Shown here: positions 2,383 through 43,164 of the stretch, one piece after another | Layout of the letters: each line of letters begins with the position of its first letter | How positions within the stretch are numbered: position 1 is the first letter of the stretch | Origin: Bacteroidetes bacterium GWB2_32_14 | Lineage (GTDB): Bacteria; Bacteroidota; Bacteroidia; Bacteroidales; UBA12077 | Direction: 5' to 3' | NCBI GenBank assembly: GCA_001768235.1 | Contig: MENK01000031.1 | Location: 7,294-71,293 of the forward strand | Length of the DNA stretch: 64,000 bases | Made by a program: the position numbers and the translations under genes | Notes under the pieces: generated by a model | Databases searched by the model: none | What the model saw: only the letters and a program-made list of their open reading frames with translations | What the model was told of the DNA's origin: nothing

Positions 2383-3732
2383 ATGAAAATGAAAAAATCG
2401 GGTATTGTTGTTTTGCTTTTAATAAGCACGCTGGGGTTCGCACAGAATAAGTCAGTTGATTCAACAAAAGTTTACAAAAAGCGTGTGCTGGAGTCATCAG
2501 AAATTGATTTTATAACCAGTTATTATTTACAGGATGGCAGGAATGCTGCTGTAAGCGGTGGTATTGGAACCGAAGAACTGAGTGATTTTACTTCCAATTT
2601 AGTTGTTTCTGTACCTCTAAACGATGATGATATTCTAACCGTTGATGCAGGTATTTCGGCCTATTCGTCTGCTTCATCAAGCAATATAAATCCTTTCGAC
2701 GGCGACAATGCAGACCCTTTTCTGGCTTCATCCGGTGCCTCTTCGAGCGATGTATGGTATAATTTTACAGGATCGTACAACCATAGCTCCGATAACAGAA
2801 ATAATATCTGGGATGCCAGGCTGTCTGTTTCAATCGAGTTCGACTATACTTCTTTTGGTTTTGGTGGTGGATATACAAAGCTTTTTAATGAGAAAAATAC
2901 TGAAGCAAGTGTCCATGCCAATGTGTTCCTGGACTCATGGTCTCCTAGATATCCCGTTGAACTAAGTTCTGCAAGCAGGAGTTTTAGTATCGACGATTAT
3001 ACAATTACCGGCAATTCAGATTACAATCCAACATTTCAGCCTTTTAGCAATAAATCGCGTAATTCTTATTCGCTTGGATTTGGATTATCCCAGGTTCTTT
3101 CAAAAAACCTTCAAACATTATTTGCCTTGGATTTGGTTTTTCAACAGGGATTGTTATCAACGCCCTACCAAAGAATCTATTTTAGCGATATTGAAGATTC
3201 ATTTATCGAAGATTTCCAACTGGCCGATGCGATTGAACTACTGCCAGATACCCGTTTAAAAGTAGCCCTAGGCAACCGGATGAGTTATTATATTAACGAA
3301 TACATTGTTTTACGTTCATTTTACCGGTATTATTTTGACGACTGGGGTATTATTTCTCATACAGCAAGCCTTGAAATACCGGTAAAATTTGCCGATAAGT
3401 TTACATTATATCCATCGTACCGGTATTATTCGCAAACAGCAGCAGATTATTTTGCTCCTTACGAAAAACATGTATCTACAGAACGTTTTTACACATCCGA
3501 TTACGACCTGTCAGGGTTTTATGCAAACCAGTATGGTTTTGGGATAACCTATACCGATATTTTCACCAATTCGCACATCTGGATTTTCGGGTTAAAAAGC
3601 ATTGATCTGAAACTTAATTATTATGAAAGAGACACAGGGTTTAACGCCTTGTTTATAGTAGGAGGATTTAAATTTGTTCTTGATGACAGGAAAAAATCAA
3701 TACCTAAATTATTAAATAAAATCGGCTTTTAA
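2383..3732 (+). CDS. DUF3570-like outer-membrane beta-barrel protein
   Basis: Signal peptide, SYYLQDG..AAVSGGIGTEEL N-terminal motif, alternating aromatic beta-strands, YRYY..D.WG..SHT and SDYDLS motifs. Adjacent to DUF4266. Confidence 0.78.
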   Translation: MKMKKSGIVVLLLISTLGFAQNKSVDSTKVYKKRVLESSEIDFITSYYLQDGRNAAVSGGIGTEELSDFTSNLVVSVPLNDDDILTVDAGISAYSSASSSNINPFDGDNADPFLASSGASSSDVWYNFTGSYNHSSDNRNNIWDARLSVSIEFDYTSFGFGGGYTKLFNEKNTEASVHANVFLDSWSPRYPVELSSASRSFSIDDYTITGNSDYNPTFQPFSNKSRNSYSLGFGLSQVLSKNLQTLFALDLVFQQGLLSTPYQRIYFSDIEDSFIEDFQLADAIELLPDTRLKVALGNRMSYYINEYIVLRSFYRYYFDDWGIISHTASLEIPVKFADKFTLYPSYRYYSQTAADYFAPYEKHVSTERFYTSDYDLSGFYANQYGFGITYTDIFTNSHIWIFGLKSIDLKLNYYERDTGFNALFIVGGFKFVLDDRKKSIPKLLNKIGF

Positions 3733-3745
3733 ATCTTACCAATAC

Positions 3746-4627
3746 TTAATCAACAAAGACATTCAGTCCTTTAGGAATAATTTTTATTCTTAGTTCTTCG
3801 CCCATTTCACCGGGTTCGCCATCGAAATGAATAACATCGGGTTGTTTTCGGCGAATGGTAAGTTCTTCGCAACTGAACGTTTCGAGATACTGGCTTTTAT
3901 CTATATTTTTAAGAAACAACCGGGCACCCATAACCGGGGCATTAATAATTGGGAAAGCACGCATAATGGCAACTTCCATTTTACCATCGTTTACATCAGC
4001 TTTGGGAGCAATATGAGCATTGTTCCCATATTGAGATGCGTTGGCACAGGTAATAAGAAAAGCATCTCGAAAAAGTGTTTTTTCTTTAGTTGCTATCTCG
4101 TAACGTTGTGGCTCATATTTAACAAACTCTGAAAAGGATGCCTTAATGTAATTTGCAAAACCACGTCCTTCGGTTTTTGAAAAAACATGTCCGACATGGG
4201 CATCGAAACCAACACCTGTTGTACAAAAGAATAAACGGTCATTTATTTTGCCATAATCCATTTTTAAAATATTCCTTTTAAAAATAAGATTCAGGGCCTT
4301 TCTCGGATTCATGGGGATTTTCAGGTGCCTGGCTAGACCATTGCCCGAGCCAACAGGAATTATTCCTAAAACAGCATCGGTATCTACAATAGCACTTGCC
4401 ACTTCGTTTACTGTGCCATCGCCACCAACAGCAATAAAAATCTTAAATCCTTTGGTGTAATAATCTCTAACCCTGCTTGTTGCATCACCCGGAAAGCGTG
4501 TTTCAATTATTTCAAAATCGATTTGTCGGGCATTGAGCTTTTTCTCAATAAGCCCGGATAATGAACCTTTGTTTTTTTTACCTGAAACCGGGTTAACAAC
4601 AAATAAAAACTTTTCTTTCATCGCCAC
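3746..4627 (-). CDS. Diacylglycerol/lipid kinase, DagK/YegS family
   Basis: VNPVSG, AVGGDGTVNEV, GIIPVGSGNGLARHL, NASQYG and HFDGE motifs. The ATG at 4621 is an alternative start. Confidence 0.9.
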   Translation of the reverse strand: MAMKEKFLFVVNPVSGKKNKGSLSGLIEKKLNARQIDFEIIETRFPGDATSRVRDYYTKGFKIFIAVGGDGTVNEVASAIVDTDAVLGIIPVGSGNGLARHLKIPMNPRKALNLIFKRNILKMDYGKINDRLFFCTTGVGFDAHVGHVFSKTEGRGFANYIKASFSEFVKYEPQRYEIATKEKTLFRDAFLITCANASQYGNNAHIAPKADVNDGKMEVAIMRAFPIINAPVMGARLFLKNIDKSQYLETFSCEELTIRRKQPDVIHFDGEPGEMGEELRIKIIPKGLNVFVD

Positions 4628-6891: not shown

Positions 6892-7962
6892 ATGATTCGA
6901 AAATTCAATTTATTCTTCATATTTCTATTCCTGTTTACCAAGATATTTTCGCAAACAGGAGGAACATCAACCTATTCATTTCTTGAACTTACAAACTCTG
7001 CCCGGGTAGCGGCAATGGGTGGAAACTTAAACTCTGTAAACGACAACGACTTAAACCTTACTTATCATAACCCGGCATTGCTGACAGCAGAAATGGATCA
7101 AACACTCGTGCTGAACTACGTGAACTACTTTGCCGGCATAAATTACGGGTATGTTTCGTATGCAAGAAATATAAAGAACTTTGGTGTTTTTGCCGGGGGA
7201 ATTCAATACATAAATTACGGTAAGTTTATTGAAGCCGACGACAAGGGAATTGTTACCGGGGAGTTTAATGCTTCTGAGTTTGCTTTAAGCTTAACTTACT
7301 CGCACCCGATAAATGAATTGTTTACAGTTGGAGCAACAATAAAACCTGTTATTTCCACACTCGAAAATTATACATCACTTGGTATTTCCGCTGATTTTGG
7401 AGCTTTATATAACAGTCCCGAGAAATTGTTCTCGGCTGCACTGGTTGTAAAAAACCTCGGAACACAGTTGAAATCATATACAAGCGAAACCGACAACTTG
7501 CCCCTGAATGTTCAGATAGGTATTTCACAAAAGTTAAAACATGCCCCTCTCCGATTTTCGATTATTGCCGATCATCTTGAAAAACCTGATTTATCATATA
7601 CAATTGAAAACAATGATTCAGACCTCGACCTGCTGACAGGTGAAGAAACATCAGAATCGGCCATTGATAAAATTGCCGATGGAGTTATGCGCCATATTAT
7701 TATCGGCTTGGAATTCATGCCCGTTGAAAACCTGTATCTTCGGGCCGGGTATAATTACAGAAGGCGGCAGGAAATGATTATAGAAACCCGAACGGCCATG
7801 TCAGGATTCTCGTGGGGTTTTGGGCTTAAAATCTCAAAATTCCATATCAACTACGGGCGGGCAACATACCACCTTGCAGGAGCTTCGGATCATATCTCTA
7901 TAAGCACAAATCTTGAAAGCTTCTATAAACGTCATGAATCAATATCATCTTCCGAATATTAA
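6892..7962 (+). CDS. porQ: Type IX secretion system outer-membrane protein PorQ
   Basis: FLEL..SAR.AAMGG, NPALL, YINYG.F, GYNYRRRQE and HLAG motifs. Conserved position upstream of cmk. The ATG at 6892 is preferred over the TTG at 6865. Confidence 0.8.
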   Translation: MIRKFNLFFIFLFLFTKIFSQTGGTSTYSFLELTNSARVAAMGGNLNSVNDNDLNLTYHNPALLTAEMDQTLVLNYVNYFAGINYGYVSYARNIKNFGVFAGGIQYINYGKFIEADDKGIVTGEFNASEFALSLTYSHPINELFTVGATIKPVISTLENYTSLGISADFGALYNSPEKLFSAALVVKNLGTQLKSYTSETDNLPLNVQIGISQKLKHAPLRFSIIADHLEKPDLSYTIENNDSDLDLLTGEETSESAIDKIADGVMRHIIIGLEFMPVENLYLRAGYNYRRRQEMIIETRTAMSGFSWGFGLKISKFHINYGRATYHLAGASDHISISTNLESFYKRHESISSSEY

Positions 7963-7993
7963 TCCTGATTTTTGCCAAAAGTAAAAATTAAAA

Positions 7994-8001
7994 TACCTTT
8001 G
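7994..8001 (+). promoter_or_regulatory. -7 promoter element (TACCTTTG) of cmk-ispH
   Basis: TAnnTTTG 32 bp upstream of the cmk ATG. Confidence 0.6.
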
Positions 8002-8033
8002 ACATTCAAAATAAATACACGCAAAGAAAGTTC

Positions 8034-8732
8034 ATGAATCCTAAAATAATTATCGCGATAGACGGTTATTCATCATCAGGGAAAAGCACAATCGCTAAAG
8101 CTACGGCAAAACACCTGGGTTATAAATACATAGACAGCGGTTCAATGTATCGGGCGGTTACCTTATATGCCCTTCGAAACAAAATCATTGATAAGGAAAA
8201 TTTGACCGTTAATGAAGAAAAATTAAAAACCCGGATTGATTTGATTCAAATTAATTTTATAATCAATAATAAATTGAACCGTCAGGAAATATGCCTGAAT
8301 GGGGAGAATGTTGAAGATGAAATTCGTGAAATGGAAGTTTCCAATGCAGTAAGTTTTATTAGTAAAATAAAGTTTGTTCGCGAAAAAATGGTCAGGATAC
8401 AACAGGAACTGGGCAAAGAAAAAGGAATCGTAATGGATGGCCGTGATATTGGAACGGTTGTATTTCCAAATGCCGAATTAAAAATTTTCATGAATGCAAA
8501 AGCTGAAGTCAGGGCAGAGAGAAGGTTTAAGGAACTTTCCGAAAAAGGTATTGACGTAAGCTACGCAGATATCCTGAAGAATGTAAAAAGCCGGGATCAT
8601 ATTGACGAAACCCGTGAAGAAAGTCCGCTACGGAAAGCAGCAGATGCTATCGAACTTGACAACAGCAACATGAGCGAGACTGAACAATTAAACTGGATTT
8701 TGGGTTTAATAGAAAAGATGAATAAAAATTAA
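8034..8732 (+). CDS. cmk: Cytidylate kinase
   Basis: IAIDGYSSSGKST, DSGSMYRAV, VMDGRDIGTVVFP and RDHID motifs. Confidence 0.96.
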   Translation: MNPKIIIAIDGYSSSGKSTIAKATAKHLGYKYIDSGSMYRAVTLYALRNKIIDKENLTVNEEKLKTRIDLIQINFIINNKLNRQEICLNGENVEDEIREMEVSNAVSFISKIKFVREKMVRIQQELGKEKGIVMDGRDIGTVVFPNAELKIFMNAKAEVRAERRFKELSEKGIDVSYADILKNVKSRDHIDETREESPLRKAADAIELDNSNMSETEQLNWILGLIEKMNKN

Positions 8733-8746
8733 GCTGTATTTTAAAA

Positions 8747-9616
8747 ATGGAAGTTGAAATCGACAGCAATTCGGGTTTTTGTTTTGGAGTAGTAAATGCT
8801 ATTCAGCTGGCAGAAATGGAGCTTGAGAAAACGGATTTGTTATATTGCCTGGGTGATATTGTTCATAACAATGCAGAAGTTGAGCGTTTAAAAGGAAAAG
8901 GATTAACAACAATAAATCACGAGGAATTTAAAAACCTTAAAAATTGTAAAGTATTATTACGTGCTCATGGTGAGCCACCCGAAACCTATAAAATTGCACT
9001 CGAAAATAATATCCAGTTAATAGATGCTTCATGCCCGGTAGTATTAAAATTGCAAAAAAATATTAAACTGGGGTTTGACGCGATTCTGGAAAAAGGCGGT
9101 CAGGTAGTGATTTATGGAAAAGAAGGACATGCAGAAGTAAACGGGCTCGTGGGACAAACCAACGGCAAGGCAATTGTAATTGGAGGAATTGATGATCTTG
9201 AAAAAATTGATTTTTCAAAACCCATAAACATCTTTTCACAAACCACGAAAAGCATTGAAGGATTTTATGCAATTGAGAAGGAAATCAGGAACCGCATGAT
9301 AGATTCCCAGAGAAAAGACAACGTGCAACTCATATCGAACGACACTATTTGTAGGCAGGTATCACATCGTCAGCCTCAATTGCGCGAATTTGTTAAAAGA
9401 CACGATGTTGTCGTTTTCGTGAGTGGTAAAAAAAGTTCAAACGGCAAAATGCTTTTCCAGGTATGTAAAGATGAAAACCCGAATACTTACTTTGTTTCCG
9501 ACGAGAATGAACTCGAAAAAGCCTGGTTCGAAAAAGCAACATCGGTGGGCATTTGCGGGGCTACATCAACTCCCCGCTGGCTAATGGAGAAAATTGCCGA
9601 ATCTGTTAAGAAATAA
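8747..9616 (+). CDS. ispH: 4-hydroxy-3-methylbut-2-enyl diphosphate reductase
   Basis: GFCFGV, RAHGE, DASCP, HAEV, SQTT, DTICRQV, SSN and GATSTP motifs with three Fe-S Cys. Confidence 0.96.
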   Translation: MEVEIDSNSGFCFGVVNAIQLAEMELEKTDLLYCLGDIVHNNAEVERLKGKGLTTINHEEFKNLKNCKVLLRAHGEPPETYKIALENNIQLIDASCPVVLKLQKNIKLGFDAILEKGGQVVIYGKEGHAEVNGLVGQTNGKAIVIGGIDDLEKIDFSKPINIFSQTTKSIEGFYAIEKEIRNRMIDSQRKDNVQLISNDTICRQVSHRQPQLREFVKRHDVVVFVSGKKSSNGKMLFQVCKDENPNTYFVSDENELEKAWFEKATSVGICGATSTPRWLMEKIAESVKK

Positions 9617-9629
9617 ATCTCCTTTGTCT

Positions 9630-10259
9630 TTAAATCAATTGCTTTACTAAAGCCATTACCGAAGTAATTATATACTCTATACCTATTGCAATAACAATAA
9701 AACCAATAATCCGGGAAACAGAGTTTAAACCCGATGCACCCATCTTTGAAAAGATGTAATGAGAACTTCGTAAAATCAGGTAAGTAACAATTCCAACTGC
9801 CGGGATCGTTAAAAATACTGTGATTGTTTCCCAAAAAGTTGAATAATTTTCGTTAAGGCTTATAAGCAAAGATATTGAGCCAGGCCCTGCCAACATGGGT
9901 ATTGCCAATGGTGTTAACGATGAGTCTTCTTTCATAACAGCTTCTTCGTGAACTTTTTGATCCATCCCTTTGTGTTTCGAGAAATTACCGGTTAATAAAG
10001 CAAACCCCGAGCTTGCTATAATTAATCCGCCTGCTATACGTAACGATTCAATTGAAATACCAAAAAACTGAATAATAAATTTCCCTGCAAAATATGCCAC
10101 GGAAAGAATTAAGAACATATAAACACTTGCTTTTAAAGCTGTTTTATTGCGTTCATCCCGTGAATTAGTTTCAGTTACTCCAATAAATACAGGCATTGTA
10201 CCTAGTGGATTTACTACCGAAAATAGTGCTGCAAATACAGTAAAGAATAAAATAATCAT
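9630..10259 (-). CDS. MarC/YchE family inner-membrane protein
   Basis: VVNPLG, LRIAGG, PLAIPMLAGPGSI and RIIGFIVIAIGIE motifs; six hydrophobic segments. Confidence 0.9.
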   Translation of the reverse strand: MIILFFTVFAALFSVVNPLGTMPVFIGVTETNSRDERNKTALKASVYMFLILSVAYFAGKFIIQFFGISIESLRIAGGLIIASSGFALLTGNFSKHKGMDQKVHEEAVMKEDSSLTPLAIPMLAGPGSISLLISLNENYSTFWETITVFLTIPAVGIVTYLILRSSHYIFSKMGASGLNSVSRIIGFIVIAIGIEYIITSVMALVKQLI

Positions 10260-10278
10260 AAGAATATTTTTTTATTAA

Positions 10279-10286
10279 CAAAGGTA
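10279..10286 (-). promoter_or_regulatory. -7 promoter element (TACCTTTG) of the MarC-family gene
   Basis: CAAAGGTA on the + strand, 20 bp from the start codon. Confidence 0.55.
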
Positions 10287-10386
10287 AGTAAATAAACTAC
10301 TCGGAATATTATCAAAAAATGAACACAATATTAAATATCGTGCCCTTGAAGCCTCCCCAAAATAAGAACCTTTAGAAAACATGAAG

Positions 10387-11148
10387 TTAATTAAATGCTC
10401 CTTTTAAATATTCTTTAGTCAGCTCTTCCTTAGGATTTTCAAAAAAGTCTTTTGCCGGGCCATGTTCAATAACTTCGCCCATGTACATAAAAATTACATA
10501 ATCGGCAATTCGCCTGGCCTGTCTTAAAATATGAGTAACAACTACAATTGTATAGCGTTGTTTTAGTTTAACAAAAAGTTCTTCGATTTGTTTGCTTGAT
10601 AATGGATCTAATGCCGAAGTAGGTTCGTCAGCCAGGATAATTTCAGGATCAACAGCTAATCCGCGTGCGAGGCATAATCTTTGTTGTTGTCCAATAGATA
10701 ATGATGATGCAGAATCTTTTAACCTGTCTTTTACTTCGTCCCACAAACTAACCTGCGTTAAATAATGTTCGACACGTTTTATCAGGTATTTCTTTTTTCT
10801 CCGCCCGCTGATTCTCAATCCGTAAGCTATATTATCATAAATACTCATGGGTAAAGGATAAGGACTCTGCGAAAGAAGTCCCATTTTTTTTCTAAGCAGG
10901 GTTATTTCGGTTTTGGAATGCAAAATATCTTCTTCATTTAAAAAGATACTTCCATCAATTTTCATTTCGGGATAAAGATCTGTTAACCTGTTCAGGCTCT
11001 TCAATAATGTCGTTTTTCCACAGCCTGATGGCCCGAGTATCACTGTCAGTTGCCTTTCGGGAATACTTACATGAATATTCTTTAAAATATGGTTTTTACC
11101 TATATGCAGGTTCAGATTATCAATCTTTATTTTAGATTCATTTCCCAT
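10387..11148 (-). CDS. pstB: Phosphate ABC transporter ATP-binding protein
   Basis: GPSGCGKTT, LSIGQQQRLCLARGLA, DEPTSALDP and VTH..RQARR motifs; last gene of the pst operon. Confidence 0.93.
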   Translation of the reverse strand: MGNESKIKIDNLNLHIGKNHILKNIHVSIPERQLTVILGPSGCGKTTLLKSLNRLTDLYPEMKIDGSIFLNEEDILHSKTEITLLRKKMGLLSQSPYPLPMSIYDNIAYGLRISGRRKKKYLIKRVEHYLTQVSLWDEVKDRLKDSASSLSIGQQQRLCLARGLAVDPEIILADEPTSALDPLSSKQIEELFVKLKQRYTIVVVTHILRQARRIADYVIFMYMGEVIEHGPAKDFFENPKEELTKEYLKGAFN

Positions 11149-40786: not shown

Positions 40787-40873
40787 ATATGTATATTTAT
40801 TTTGAACAATACAAAAATACAAGATAAATAAAAAAACACACGTATAGTTTTATTAAATTCTAAAATATTAATC

Positions 40874-40909
40874 AAAAAAAAAGACTGCTCAAACAATGAA
40901 CAGTCTTTT
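40874..40909 (-). terminator. Intrinsic terminator of the P-loop (ArcE-like) gene
   Basis: The minus-strand RNA reads AAAAGACUGUUCA-UUGUU-UGAGCAGUCUUUU: 13-bp stem with one G-U pair, ending in a U9 run. Confidence 0.85.
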
Positions 40910-40929: not shown

Positions 40930-42273
40930 TTATTTTGCCAGTTTATGAGCTTTAACAAAATCATTAACGGCTTGTCTTAAATCTGGCTGGCCTATTTCCT
41001 GTAGATCGTATCCAACTTTAACGGTTGGTTTTTTAATTTTCACGATTCTGTTCAAATCAATCGGAGTAGCAATAACAACAACATCACATGGTGTTTTGTC
41101 GATTGTAGCTTCAAGGTCTTTCACTTGTTGGTCGCCATAACCCATAGCAGGAAGTAAAGTTCCAATGTTCGGATAAATTCTGAACGTTTCAGCTAATTTA
41201 CCAACAGCAAAAGGTCTTGGGTCAACTAATTCAGCTGCTCCACATTTTCTTGCAGCAACAGTACCAGCTCCAATTTTCATTTCCCCATGAGTTAAGGTTG
41301 GCCCGTCTTCAACCACCAATACTTTTTTACCTCTCACTAATTCCGGTTTATCAATTGTAAGTGGAGAAGCACCATCAACAACTATTGCTTTAGGATTTAC
41401 TTTTGCTATATTTTCACGAACTGTCTGAATATCTTTAGCATCAGCAGAATCCATTTTATTAATTACAACATAATCGGCTAAACGTAAAGTAGCTTCGCCA
41501 GGATAGTATGATAATTCGTGACCTGGGCGATGAGGATCAACAACAGTAACCATTAAATCCGGTTTGTAGAACGGGAAATCGTTATTTCCACCATCCCAAA
41601 GAATAACATCGCAACCATCAGGATCTTTTTCTGCAGCACGAACAATAGCTTCATAATCAACACCTGCATAAATCACATTGCCCCTGACTACATGTGGTTC
41701 GTATTCTTCCATTTCTTCAATGGTGCATTTGTGTTTAGCTAAATCTTCAACTTTGGCAAAACGTTGAACTTTTTGAGCAACTAAATCACCATAAGGCATT
41801 GGGTGACGAATGGCAACTACTTTAAGCCCTTTTTCCATTAATAACTCGATAATTCTACGTGATGTTTGTGATTTACCACAACCTGTACGAACAGCGCCAA
41901 CAGCAATAACTGGTTTGGTGCTTTTAATCATGGTTTTACCCGGGCCTAATAAAACAAAATTAGCACCAGCAGCATTTACCAATGCACTAATATTCATTAC
42001 TACCTGGTAAGGTACATCGCTGTATGAAAATACACAATCTTCAACTTTTAGTTCGTTTATTAATCGTGGCAATTCGTCCTGGGCAAAAATTGGAATACCT
42101 GCAGGATACAACTTACCTGCTAATTCTGCAGGATATTTTCTTCCGTAAATATCTGGAATTTGAGCAGCAGTAAAAGCAACAACATTATAATCTGCATTGT
42201 CTCTGTAGTACGTGTTAAAATTGTGGAAATCTCTTCCAGCGGCTCCGATAATGAGTACATTTTTCTTAGCCAT
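40930..42273 (-). CDS. COG2403-type P-loop enzyme, usually annotated cyclic 2,3-diphosphoglycerate synthetase-like GTPase; candidate arginine synthetase (ArcE-type)
   Basis: N-terminal GAAGRDFHNFN..FTAAQIP..GRKYP.ELAG.LYP.GIPI, Walker A RTGCGKSQ, IRHPMPYGDL, EEMEEYEPH, WDGGNND, EDGPTLTHG and LPAMGY motifs. Confidence 0.75.
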   Translation of the reverse strand: MAKKNVLIIGAAGRDFHNFNTYYRDNADYNVVAFTAAQIPDIYGRKYPAELAGKLYPAGIPIFAQDELPRLINELKVEDCVFSYSDVPYQVVMNISALVNAAGANFVLLGPGKTMIKSTKPVIAVGAVRTGCGKSQTSRRIIELLMEKGLKVVAIRHPMPYGDLVAQKVQRFAKVEDLAKHKCTIEEMEEYEPHVVRGNVIYAGVDYEAIVRAAEKDPDGCDVILWDGGNNDFPFYKPDLMVTVVDPHRPGHELSYYPGEATLRLADYVVINKMDSADAKDIQTVRENIAKVNPKAIVVDGASPLTIDKPELVRGKKVLVVEDGPTLTHGEMKIGAGTVAARKCGAAELVDPRPFAVGKLAETFRIYPNIGTLLPAMGYGDQQVKDLEATIDKTPCDVVVIATPIDLNRIVKIKKPTVKVGYDLQEIGQPDLRQAVNDFVKAHKLAK

Positions 42274-42287
42274 AAATCCTCCTTTTT
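42274..42287 (-). promoter_or_regulatory. Strong Shine-Dalgarno (AAAAAGGAGGATTT-ATG)
   Basis: + strand AAATCCTCCTTTTT immediately after CAT at 42271-42273. Confidence 0.75.
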
Positions 42288-42312: not shown

Positions 42313-42320
42313 CAAAGTTA
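42313..42320 (-). promoter_or_regulatory. -7 promoter element (TAACTTTG) of the ArcE-like gene
   Basis: CAAAGTTA on the + strand, 39 bp from the start codon. Confidence 0.6.
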
Positions 42321-42567: not shown

Positions 42568-43164
42568 ATGAACTTTTTAGCCCATATTTATCTTTCCGGT
42601 GATGATGATCAAATTAAGATCGGTAATTTTATTGGCGACTATGTAAAGGGCAATGCGTTCGGCATGTATCCCGATAATATTCAAAAAGGAATACGGTTAC
42701 ACAGGAACATCGATTCATTTACAGACCGAAACAGAACTGCTGTAAAAGCAAAAGAACTTTTTTACATTCAGTATCATAAATACGCGGGTATTGTAATTGA
42801 CATTATTTATGACCATTATCTTGCTGCAAATTGGGACAGGTTTTCAAAAATTCCTCTTGAAAATTACGTGTCCGATTTTTATAACCTCATGCTCAAGTAC
42901 GAGTTTATGATGCCATCCGAAGTTCAGGTTTTTATCCCAAAGCTTATTGAAAATAACCGTTTGTATTCTTACAGAACCATCGATGGTATAGAGTCTGTGT
43001 TAAGCACCATGTCTAAATTTACTTCGTTGCCCGACTACTCTGAGTTTGCAATTTTAACATTAAAAGAAAACTATACTTTTTTAGAAGAAAATTTCTTTAC
43101 CTTTTTTTCCGAGATACTTTACCACATGAGTACAGTACACAATATCAGTTACGATAATTTATAA
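42568..43164 (+). CDS. acpH: Acyl carrier protein phosphodiesterase
   Basis: MNFLAHIYLSG, GNFIGDYVKG, GIRLHRNIDSFTD and DIIYDHYLA motifs. Confidence 0.9.
   Translation: MNFLAHIYLSGDDDQIKIGNFIGDYVKGNAFGMYPDNIQKGIRLHRNIDSFTDRNRTAVKAKELFYIQYHKYAGIVIDIIYDHYLAANWDRFSKIPLENYVSDFYNLMLKYEFMMPSEVQVFIPKLIENNRLYSYRTIDGIESVLSTMSKFTSLPDYSEFAILTLKENYTFLEENFFTFFSEILYHMSTVHNISYDNL

Follow-up and report, generated by a model that had tools for sequence, protein, structure and literature searches.

A predicted ArcE-type arginine synthetase in a Bacteroidales genome and its probable role in arginine catabolism

Which reaction is catalyzed by a P-loop protein whose public names, 'GTPase' or 'cyclic 2,3-diphosphoglycerate synthase', point in two different directions? 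The question is raised by a gene in a 64,000-nucleotide stretch of DNA (the window) from Bacteroidetes bacterium GWB2_32_14, a member of the order Bacteroidales. The window belongs to contig C31 (MENK01000031.1) of an assembly that is 98.95% complete. The gene is the following:

40930..42273, minus strand: arcE-type coding sequence, 447 aa, predicted by sequence comparison to encode an orthologue of the ADP-forming arginine synthetase, or ATP-forming arginine deiminase

The answer proposed here is that this gene is a bona fide, though predicted, ArcE orthologue that is mis-annotated in public databases, and that it probably plays a catabolic role in its host, converting arginine into citrulline with formation of ATP and leading to carbamoyl phosphate for both ATP and pyrimidines. 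The reaction is taken from the archaeal enzyme, and we infer its direction in vivo; orthology, fold, gene content, co-occurrence, and linkage were computed here.

ArcE is the arginine synthetase TK2200 of Thermococcus kodakarensis (Michimori, Yokooji and Atomi 2024, PMC11032458; Michimori et al. 2026, PMC13260591). The enzyme works in both directions and allows growth on citrulline and ammonium, its equilibrium lies on the side of citrulline and ATP (K about 10), and it is strictly specific for L-arginine and favours ADP, with GDP giving 8.4% relative activity (PMC11032458). Both arcE and arcB are needed for pyrimidine prototrophy in T. kodakarensis, where they supply carbamoyl phosphate (PMC13260591). 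Bacteroidota, for example Petrimonas, were already listed among the phyla with arcE homologues in the 2024 paper (PMC11032458).

Pfam and NCBIfam scans assigned the window protein to no family and returned only a partial cobW hit, and a sequence search of the PDB yielded no ArcE structure, only distant matches to cyclic 2,3-diphosphoglycerate synthetase (cDPGS). Close relatives number more than 8000, with Bacteroidales members 85-96% identical, and of the 3750 representative clusters recovered in an exhaustive homologue search, 650 have E<=1e-30. The comparison with the archaeal enzyme was made through five Thermococcus genomes, reached via a KOD DNA polymerase probe; these close congeners, which are metagenome-assembled genomes (MAGs), stand in for T. 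kodakarensis KOD1. Each of the five harbors exactly one gene whose product matches residues 3-445 of the window protein at 62-65% identity (633-662 bits), in agreement with the stated presence of arcE in Thermococcales (PMC11032458; PMC13260591). Aligned pairwise with one such orthologue (L090), the window protein shows 64% identity and 81% positives (609 bits), end to end and essentially gap-free. The two have in common the motifs GAAGRDFHNFN, WDGGNND, DPHRPGHE, and EDGPTLTHG as well as the P-loop, and the residues that are invariant or nearly so across the family are G10, G13, R14, H17, R129-T130-G131-x-G133-K134 (P-loop), E187, E189, G204, D206, W226, G228, D232, D246, R249, and D323.

That the Thermococcus gene is the orthologue of TK2200 follows from three independent checks: primer ends, synteny with pyrBI, and presence in all five genomes. 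The 'inside' primers for TK2200 translate to MAEKKKKRVLI... and ...KNCEKLKK followed by a stop (PMC13260591 supplement). They meet the exact start and stop of the Thermococcus orthologue open reading frames (ORFs) with 4-8 mismatches out of 29-33, and their 11-15 mismatches on the second Thermococcus paralogue are at chance level. Thermococcus pyrB/pyrI share a strand with the arcE orthologue and lie 5.8 kb downstream of it, a position to be expected from the tags TK2200 and TK2196/TK2195. A maximum-likelihood tree built from 43 sequences places 41 members in one clade that holds both Thermococcus ArcE and the Bacteroidales group of the window, both of them short-branched. The ArcE-type assignment, which an earlier note on this DNA had proposed, is supported by this alignment and this clade.

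The fold is consistent with this assignment. An AlphaFold2 model of the window protein, based on a 38-sequence alignment, has a pLDDT of 94.2 and a pTM of 0.92. Its nearest solved fold is cDPGS 8oru (Foldseek E 1e-16, TM 0.43, 15% identity), and the third-ranked neighbour is LpxK 4ehy (E 9e-9, TM 0.47/0.65), the very structure with which a TK2200 model had been superimposed in the ArcE work (PMC11032458). The model contains the LpxK-like P-loop NTPase core described for TK2200p, and the P-loop itself, G126-AVRT-G131-C-G133-K134-S135 (GAVRTGCGKS, residues 126-135), is of the LpxK-like GxxxxGxGKS form. No chemical mechanism is proposed for ArcE in either paper (PMC11032458; PMC13260591). The resemblance of the fold to the kinase LpxK makes it likely that a phosphoryl group passes between the nucleotide and citrulline, at the ureido oxygen of the latter, through a phospho-isourea-type intermediate.

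What the enzyme would do in its host can be read from the gene content of the host genome. The earlier note had seen no ornithine carbamoyltransferase (OTC) or carbamate kinase gene next to arcE and had considered a dispersed pathway, which is indeed what the genome holds: these two genes lie side by side on contig C3, away from arcE in the window. The search that the note had suggested for argF/arcB, arcC, arcA, and argG/argH recovered arcB, arcC, and a divergent arginine deiminase (ADI)-like gene, and neither argG nor argH:

C3:94219-95193 and C3:95299-96213: arcB (OTC) and arcC (carbamate kinase) pair, both above curated cut-offs
C14:59987-61252 (L008 6987-8252): divergent ADI-family protein, 421 aa, below both curated arcA cut-offs

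The arcC product scores 374 bits against a cut-off of 358, and that of arcB 429 bits (TIGR00658) and 574 bits (NF002470). The genome also encodes an ornithine aminotransferase (rocD, 700 bits), pyrB (373 bits), pyrI (160 bits), and pyrE, which was weak with an E. coli probe and was then confirmed by NCBIfam (132 bits). The ADI-family protein is full length relative to Pseudomonas aeruginosa ADI, with its FTRD, EGGD, HLD, and C-terminal catalytic Cys motifs intact. By contrast, argG gave no hit in the host genome (control 14/14), and argH, carA, and carB, the latter two encoding carbamoyl-phosphate synthetase (CPS), were not found there. Their weak matches were considered as divergent true genes and rejected: those of argH are fumC and aspA, that of carA is trpG/pabA, and that of carB, at most 64 bits where the cut-off is 1027, is a biotin carboxylase. 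E. coli probes, whose sensitivity is limited, detected no argA, argB, or argC in this genome. Assembly gaps do not explain the missing genes, because a closed genome of the same genus (G111) displays an identical pattern of presence and absence. The host is thus predicted to be an arginine auxotroph without CPS, and its gene complement is the genotype described for T. kodakarensis (PMC13260591).

It is because arcB-arcC, the ADI-like gene, rocD, and pyrB/pyrI/pyrE are present and argG, argH, and CPS are absent that a catabolic role of ArcE appears likely. Imported arginine would be deiminated by ArcE with conservation of one ATP, and the adjacent arcB-arcC pair would turn citrulline into ornithine and carbamoyl phosphate. 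The latter would yield a second ATP or be passed to PyrB/PyrI for pyrimidine synthesis, and ornithine would proceed through RocD. The gain of ATP from arginine, one of two possibilities raised in the earlier note, fits this gene content. A separate cluster on contig C22 (C22:27428-31100; L009 7354-11073), a few kb from pyrBI and rocD, encodes the knotted carbamoyltransferase YgeW (684 bits), the selenium-linked hydrolase YgeY (534 bits), and a maturation factor of XdhC type. It is of a purine/oxalurate-type catabolic kind, and represents a possible second source of carbamoyl phosphate in this CPS-less genome.

The distribution of these genes was surveyed across the order in 151 genomes, almost every one representing a different family. 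ArcE was found in 96 of them, arcC in 110, carB in 82, argG in 57, and an ADI-like gene in 65, with the following associations:

arcE and arcC: both in 92, arcE alone in 4, arcC alone in 18, neither in 37; odds ratio 47, p = 3e-17
arcE and carB: both in 40, arcE alone in 56, carB alone in 42, neither in 13; odds ratio 0.22, p = 4e-5
arcE and argG: both in 20, arcE alone in 76, argG alone in 37, neither in 18; odds ratio 0.13, p = 3e-8
arcE and ADI-like: both in 47, arcE alone in 49, ADI-like alone in 18, neither in 37; odds ratio 2.0, p = 0.06

The gene argG never occurs without carB in this set. The 69 genomes without CPS carry arcC in 66 cases and ArcE or an ADI-like gene in 66 as well, and the commonest pattern of all (32 genomes) is ArcE with arcC and without ADI-like gene, CPS, or argG. 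As a separate observation, the ADI-like type is present in 65/151 genomes and reaches the arcA cut-off in none of them, which hints at an ADI subfamily peculiar to Bacteroidales, with a putative substrate.

The flanks of ArcE, fetched from 59 genomes of the order, gave 57 informative loci from different families. In 30 of these 57, pyrB-pyrI follow immediately after arcE in the same orientation, with a gap between arcE and pyrB of 30-430 nt in most cases and usually of 70-190 nt; one example among the order relatives (L123-L178) is a locus with arcE at 9365-10708 (L125) and pyrB 88 nt downstream. None of the 30 linked genomes harbors argG, as compared with 11/27 of the others (p = 7e-5), and carB is missing in 19 of the 30. 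The linkage is lost in the genus of the window, where arcE stands alone. A different arrangement was met once among the 59 loci, in a relative (G112; L121, G112:C114) whose ADI-like gene (3300-4529) lies 3.4 kb upstream of arcE (7948-9285) on the same strand. Neither arcE-pyrBI linkage nor CPS-less bacteria are mentioned in the two ArcE papers (PMC11032458; PMC13260591), and a literature search for further papers on bacterial ArcE or COG2403 found none; the order-wide loss of CPS and ArgG and the arcE-pyrBI linkage thus appear to be the new parts. For the order as a whole, the chances are about even that many Bacteroidales families have lost CPS and arginine biosynthesis (69/151 genomes lack carB), and that ArcE, often in an arcE-pyrB-pyrI arrangement, together with OTC makes imported arginine the obligatory carbamoyl phosphate donor for de novo pyrimidines, in addition to yielding ATP.

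Several other readings of the locus have to be weighed, the most obvious of which is that current annotation is right and the window protein is a cDPGS, or else a G3E-type GTPase or metallochaperone. Besides the public names, which the earlier note had also given, this reading can call on cDPGS being the top structural neighbour, on an NKMD motif at residue 272, and on a weak Pfam cobW/G3E match (PF02492, 26.9 bits, residues 236-299). However, that match spans profile positions 113-179 of 180, a third of the domain instead of the full CobW/HypB/UreG domain, and the NCBIfam models for hypB and CobW give 13-15 bits where their cut-offs are 121-332. The structural resemblance to 8oru is limited to the low TM-score and identity given above, and in sequence the window protein reaches just 26.5 bits with cDPGS 9sxb and, in an alignment of about 110 residues, 18.4 bits with 8oru. 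A genuine cDPGS-type paralogue from Thermococcus reaches 566 bits to 9sxb and 366 bits to 8oru, the enzyme of Methanothermus fervidus, and shares only 23% identity (47 bits) with ArcE. Such a paralogue lies beside ArcE in some Thermococcus genomes (L095 829-2133, plus strand, in G003; L097 823-2121, plus strand, in G002). As the earlier note had expected of a true cDPGS, paralogues of this type begin with a DGEHY-type N-terminus, MRAVLIDGEHYP, or with VARIALVDGEHYP; the window protein begins instead with MAKKNVLIIGAAGRDFHNFN, containing the block GAAGRDFHNFN, and lacks DGEHY. In the tree, a branch 2.33+2.33 substitutions per site long, supported by an SH-aLRT of 100, sets the cDPGS-type pair apart. 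This split and the 18-26 bits to the solved enzymes refute the grouping with cDPG synthetases that the earlier note had named as the outcome contradicting its assignment. With the preference of TK2200p for ADP over GDP in addition (PMC11032458), the annotated function is most improbable for the window protein.

If the protein is an ArcE, it could still run toward arginine, forming it from scavenged citrulline with ammonia and ATP in a single reaction and standing in for ArgG/ArgH. The absence of both genes from the host, the anti-correlation of ArcE with argG across the order, and the growth of T. kodakarensis on citrulline and ammonium by means of a reversible enzyme (PMC11032458) all speak for it. 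Yet the host, without CPS and without detectable argA/B/C, would have no endogenous supply of citrulline, so that one-step synthesis, the second possibility of the earlier note, is unlikely as the main role; the equilibrium of the enzyme (PMC11032458), the tight co-occurrence with the catabolic marker carbamate kinase (92/96), and the adjacent arcB-arcC pair with rocD also point to degradation. A further reading keeps fold and chemistry and changes the substrate to another ureido or guanidino compound tied directly to pyrimidine synthesis, which would explain arcE-pyrBI adjacency without arginine. It draws on the 30/57 loci with arcE immediately upstream of pyrB-pyrI, on an ADI-like enzyme, a possible supplier of citrulline, in half of the ArcE-positive genomes, and on bacterial members being known by sequence only. 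Against it stand the near gap-free alignment with the archaeal orthologue, with all family-invariant motifs in common, the strict L-arginine specificity of TK2200p (PMC11032458), and the synteny of Thermococcus arcE with pyrBI, where the arginine reaction and its pyrimidine link have been shown by experiment (PMC13260591). Such a change of substrate is accordingly judged very unlikely. The catabolic ArcE remains the preferred reading.

A number of points weigh against this catabolic reading. Function is carried over from one archaeal enzyme at 64% identity, and the link to TK2200 is indirect, running through congeners, primer ends, and synteny instead of KOD1 itself. The intact catalytic motifs of the ADI-family protein mean that ArcE is not the sole possible step from arginine to citrulline in the host. 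The earlier note had placed ArcE in the position of arginine deiminase: ArcE is there, but an ADI-family gene accompanies it. ArcA and ArcE are reported to be complementary in occurrence (PMC11032458; PMC13260591), a tendency and not a strict rule; the host departs from it, and the 47/151 genomes of the order with both ArcE and an ADI-like gene run opposite to the published pattern. In addition, the arcE of the host does not adjoin pyrBI, and neither pyrC, pyrD, and pyrF nor an arginine transporter was identified in its genome; for pyrC and pyrF, E. coli tblastn/phmmer probes found nothing, and as these probes were judged too divergent the genes are not called absent. Carbamoyl phosphate could also come from YgeW or from carbamate kinase working in reverse. 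Finally, the co-occurrence counts treat genomes as independent of phylogeny, and many of the genomes are MAGs. Among the main uncertainties are the division of labour between ArcE and the coexisting ADI-like enzyme and these alternative sources of carbamoyl phosphate.

The gene itself is framed by its own signals, as the earlier note had described for a monocistronic P-loop gene with a -7 box, a strong ribosome-binding site, and a strong terminator. All of these, and the GAAGRDFHNFN block, were found again on re-reading, the minus strand being added:

42313..42320, minus strand: -7 promoter box TAACTTTG of the Bacteroidota type (TAnnTTTG), 47 nt 5' of the ATG, its promoter role being taken from the consensus only
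42277..42284, minus strand: Shine-Dalgarno sequence AAGGAGGA, 3 nt 5' of the ATG, read from the sequence
40869..40909, minus strand: predicted intrinsic terminator (hairpin 40909-40879) with a 13-bp stem, a 5-nt loop, and a T run, 20 nt past the stop codon

The letters of the terminator are AAAAGACTGTTCATTGTTTGAGCAGTCTTTT followed by TTTTTGATTA. Since its neighbour on the upstream side (42568..43164) is divergently oriented and the terminator separates arcE from the next downstream ORF of its strand, arcE is monocistronic. A TAnnTTTG box is found within 90 nt upstream of arcE in 49/60 loci of the order, and a comparably strong Shine-Dalgarno sequence in just 14/60; Bacteroidota are a phylum that seldom uses such sequences. 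The GC content of the gene is 0.382 (window mean 0.353), and its third codon positions are unusually AT-rich (GC3 of 0.221, where the window averages 0.297 with an sd of 0.036). Low GC3 and the perfect AAGGAGGA are possible signs of high expression. Recent horizontal transfer of arcE was also considered and is unsupported, given this GC content, the host-like AT-rich GC3, and the presence of ArcE in 96/151 genomes of the order. In a matter apart from the locus, an intein-less KOD DNA polymerase, with 100% identity across as many as 492 aa, occurs on contigs of 0.7-2.5 kb (QXXF01000046.1, L010; QXXE01000237.1, L018; NZ_JAWRXH010000019.1, L040) in assemblies named 'Clostridiales', 'Clostridiaceae', and Chryseobacterium; these contigs are almost certainly contamination of public genomes by a PCR enzyme or an expression construct.

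Compared with known systems, the predicted enzyme is closest to ArcE of T. kodakarensis, with which it shares the partner genes arcB and arcC, a background without CPS and argG/argH and with pyrBI, and an LpxK-like structural neighbour. The window host differs from T. kodakarensis in being a mesophilic bacterium of low GC, in having arcB and arcC adjoining each other, and in an ADI-family gene that T. kodakarensis lacks, and many of its Bacteroidales relatives have an arcE-pyrB-pyrI cluster whereas the genes are about 5-6 kb apart in Thermococcus. cDPGS (Methanothermus fervidus, PDB 8ork/8oru; 9sxb) is a distant homologue, likewise a P-loop enzyme with several domains and some 440-460 aa long, and gives the best structural match, but it has a DGEHY-type N-terminus, converts 2,3-diphosphoglycerate into an intramolecular phosphoanhydride, and exists as a separate paralogue beside ArcE in Thermococcus. 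The resemblance to LpxK, the tetraacyldisaccharide 4'-kinase of Aquifex aeolicus (4ehy), is confined to the P-loop kinase core with its GxxxxGxGK[ST] motif (TM 0.65 normalised to LpxK); identity is 12%, and LpxK is a membrane-associated lipid A kinase without the N- and C-terminal domains of ArcE. With regard to the pathway, the ArcA-ArcB-ArcC route has the same net conversion of arginine into ornithine, NH3, CO2, and ATP and employs the same OTC and carbamate kinase. However, hydrolysis by ArcA is irreversible and wastes its energy, whereas ArcE, of unrelated fold, couples the step to ADP phosphorylation for 2 ATP per arginine.

Thousands of database entries are mislabelled 'GTPase' or 'cyclic 2,3-diphosphoglycerate synthase'. 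If they are re-read as arginine synthetase, metabolic models of Bacteroidales would change, with arginine fermentation yielding two ATP and not one. ArcE has so far been characterised in one hyperthermophilic archaeon only, and an orthologue from a mesophilic bacterium, 64% identical, lends itself readily to confirmation and to structural work. The order-wide reading, if true, would be a widespread bacterial counterpart of the 2026 archaeal finding (PMC13260591), and would make the supply of pyrimidines in Bacteroidales of the anaerobic sediment and gut type depend on how much arginine is available. It predicts that many Bacteroidales are arginine auxotrophs whose carbamoyl phosphate, and with it their pyrimidines, depend on arginine, which would matter for the choice of culture media and for cross-feeding within anaerobic communities.

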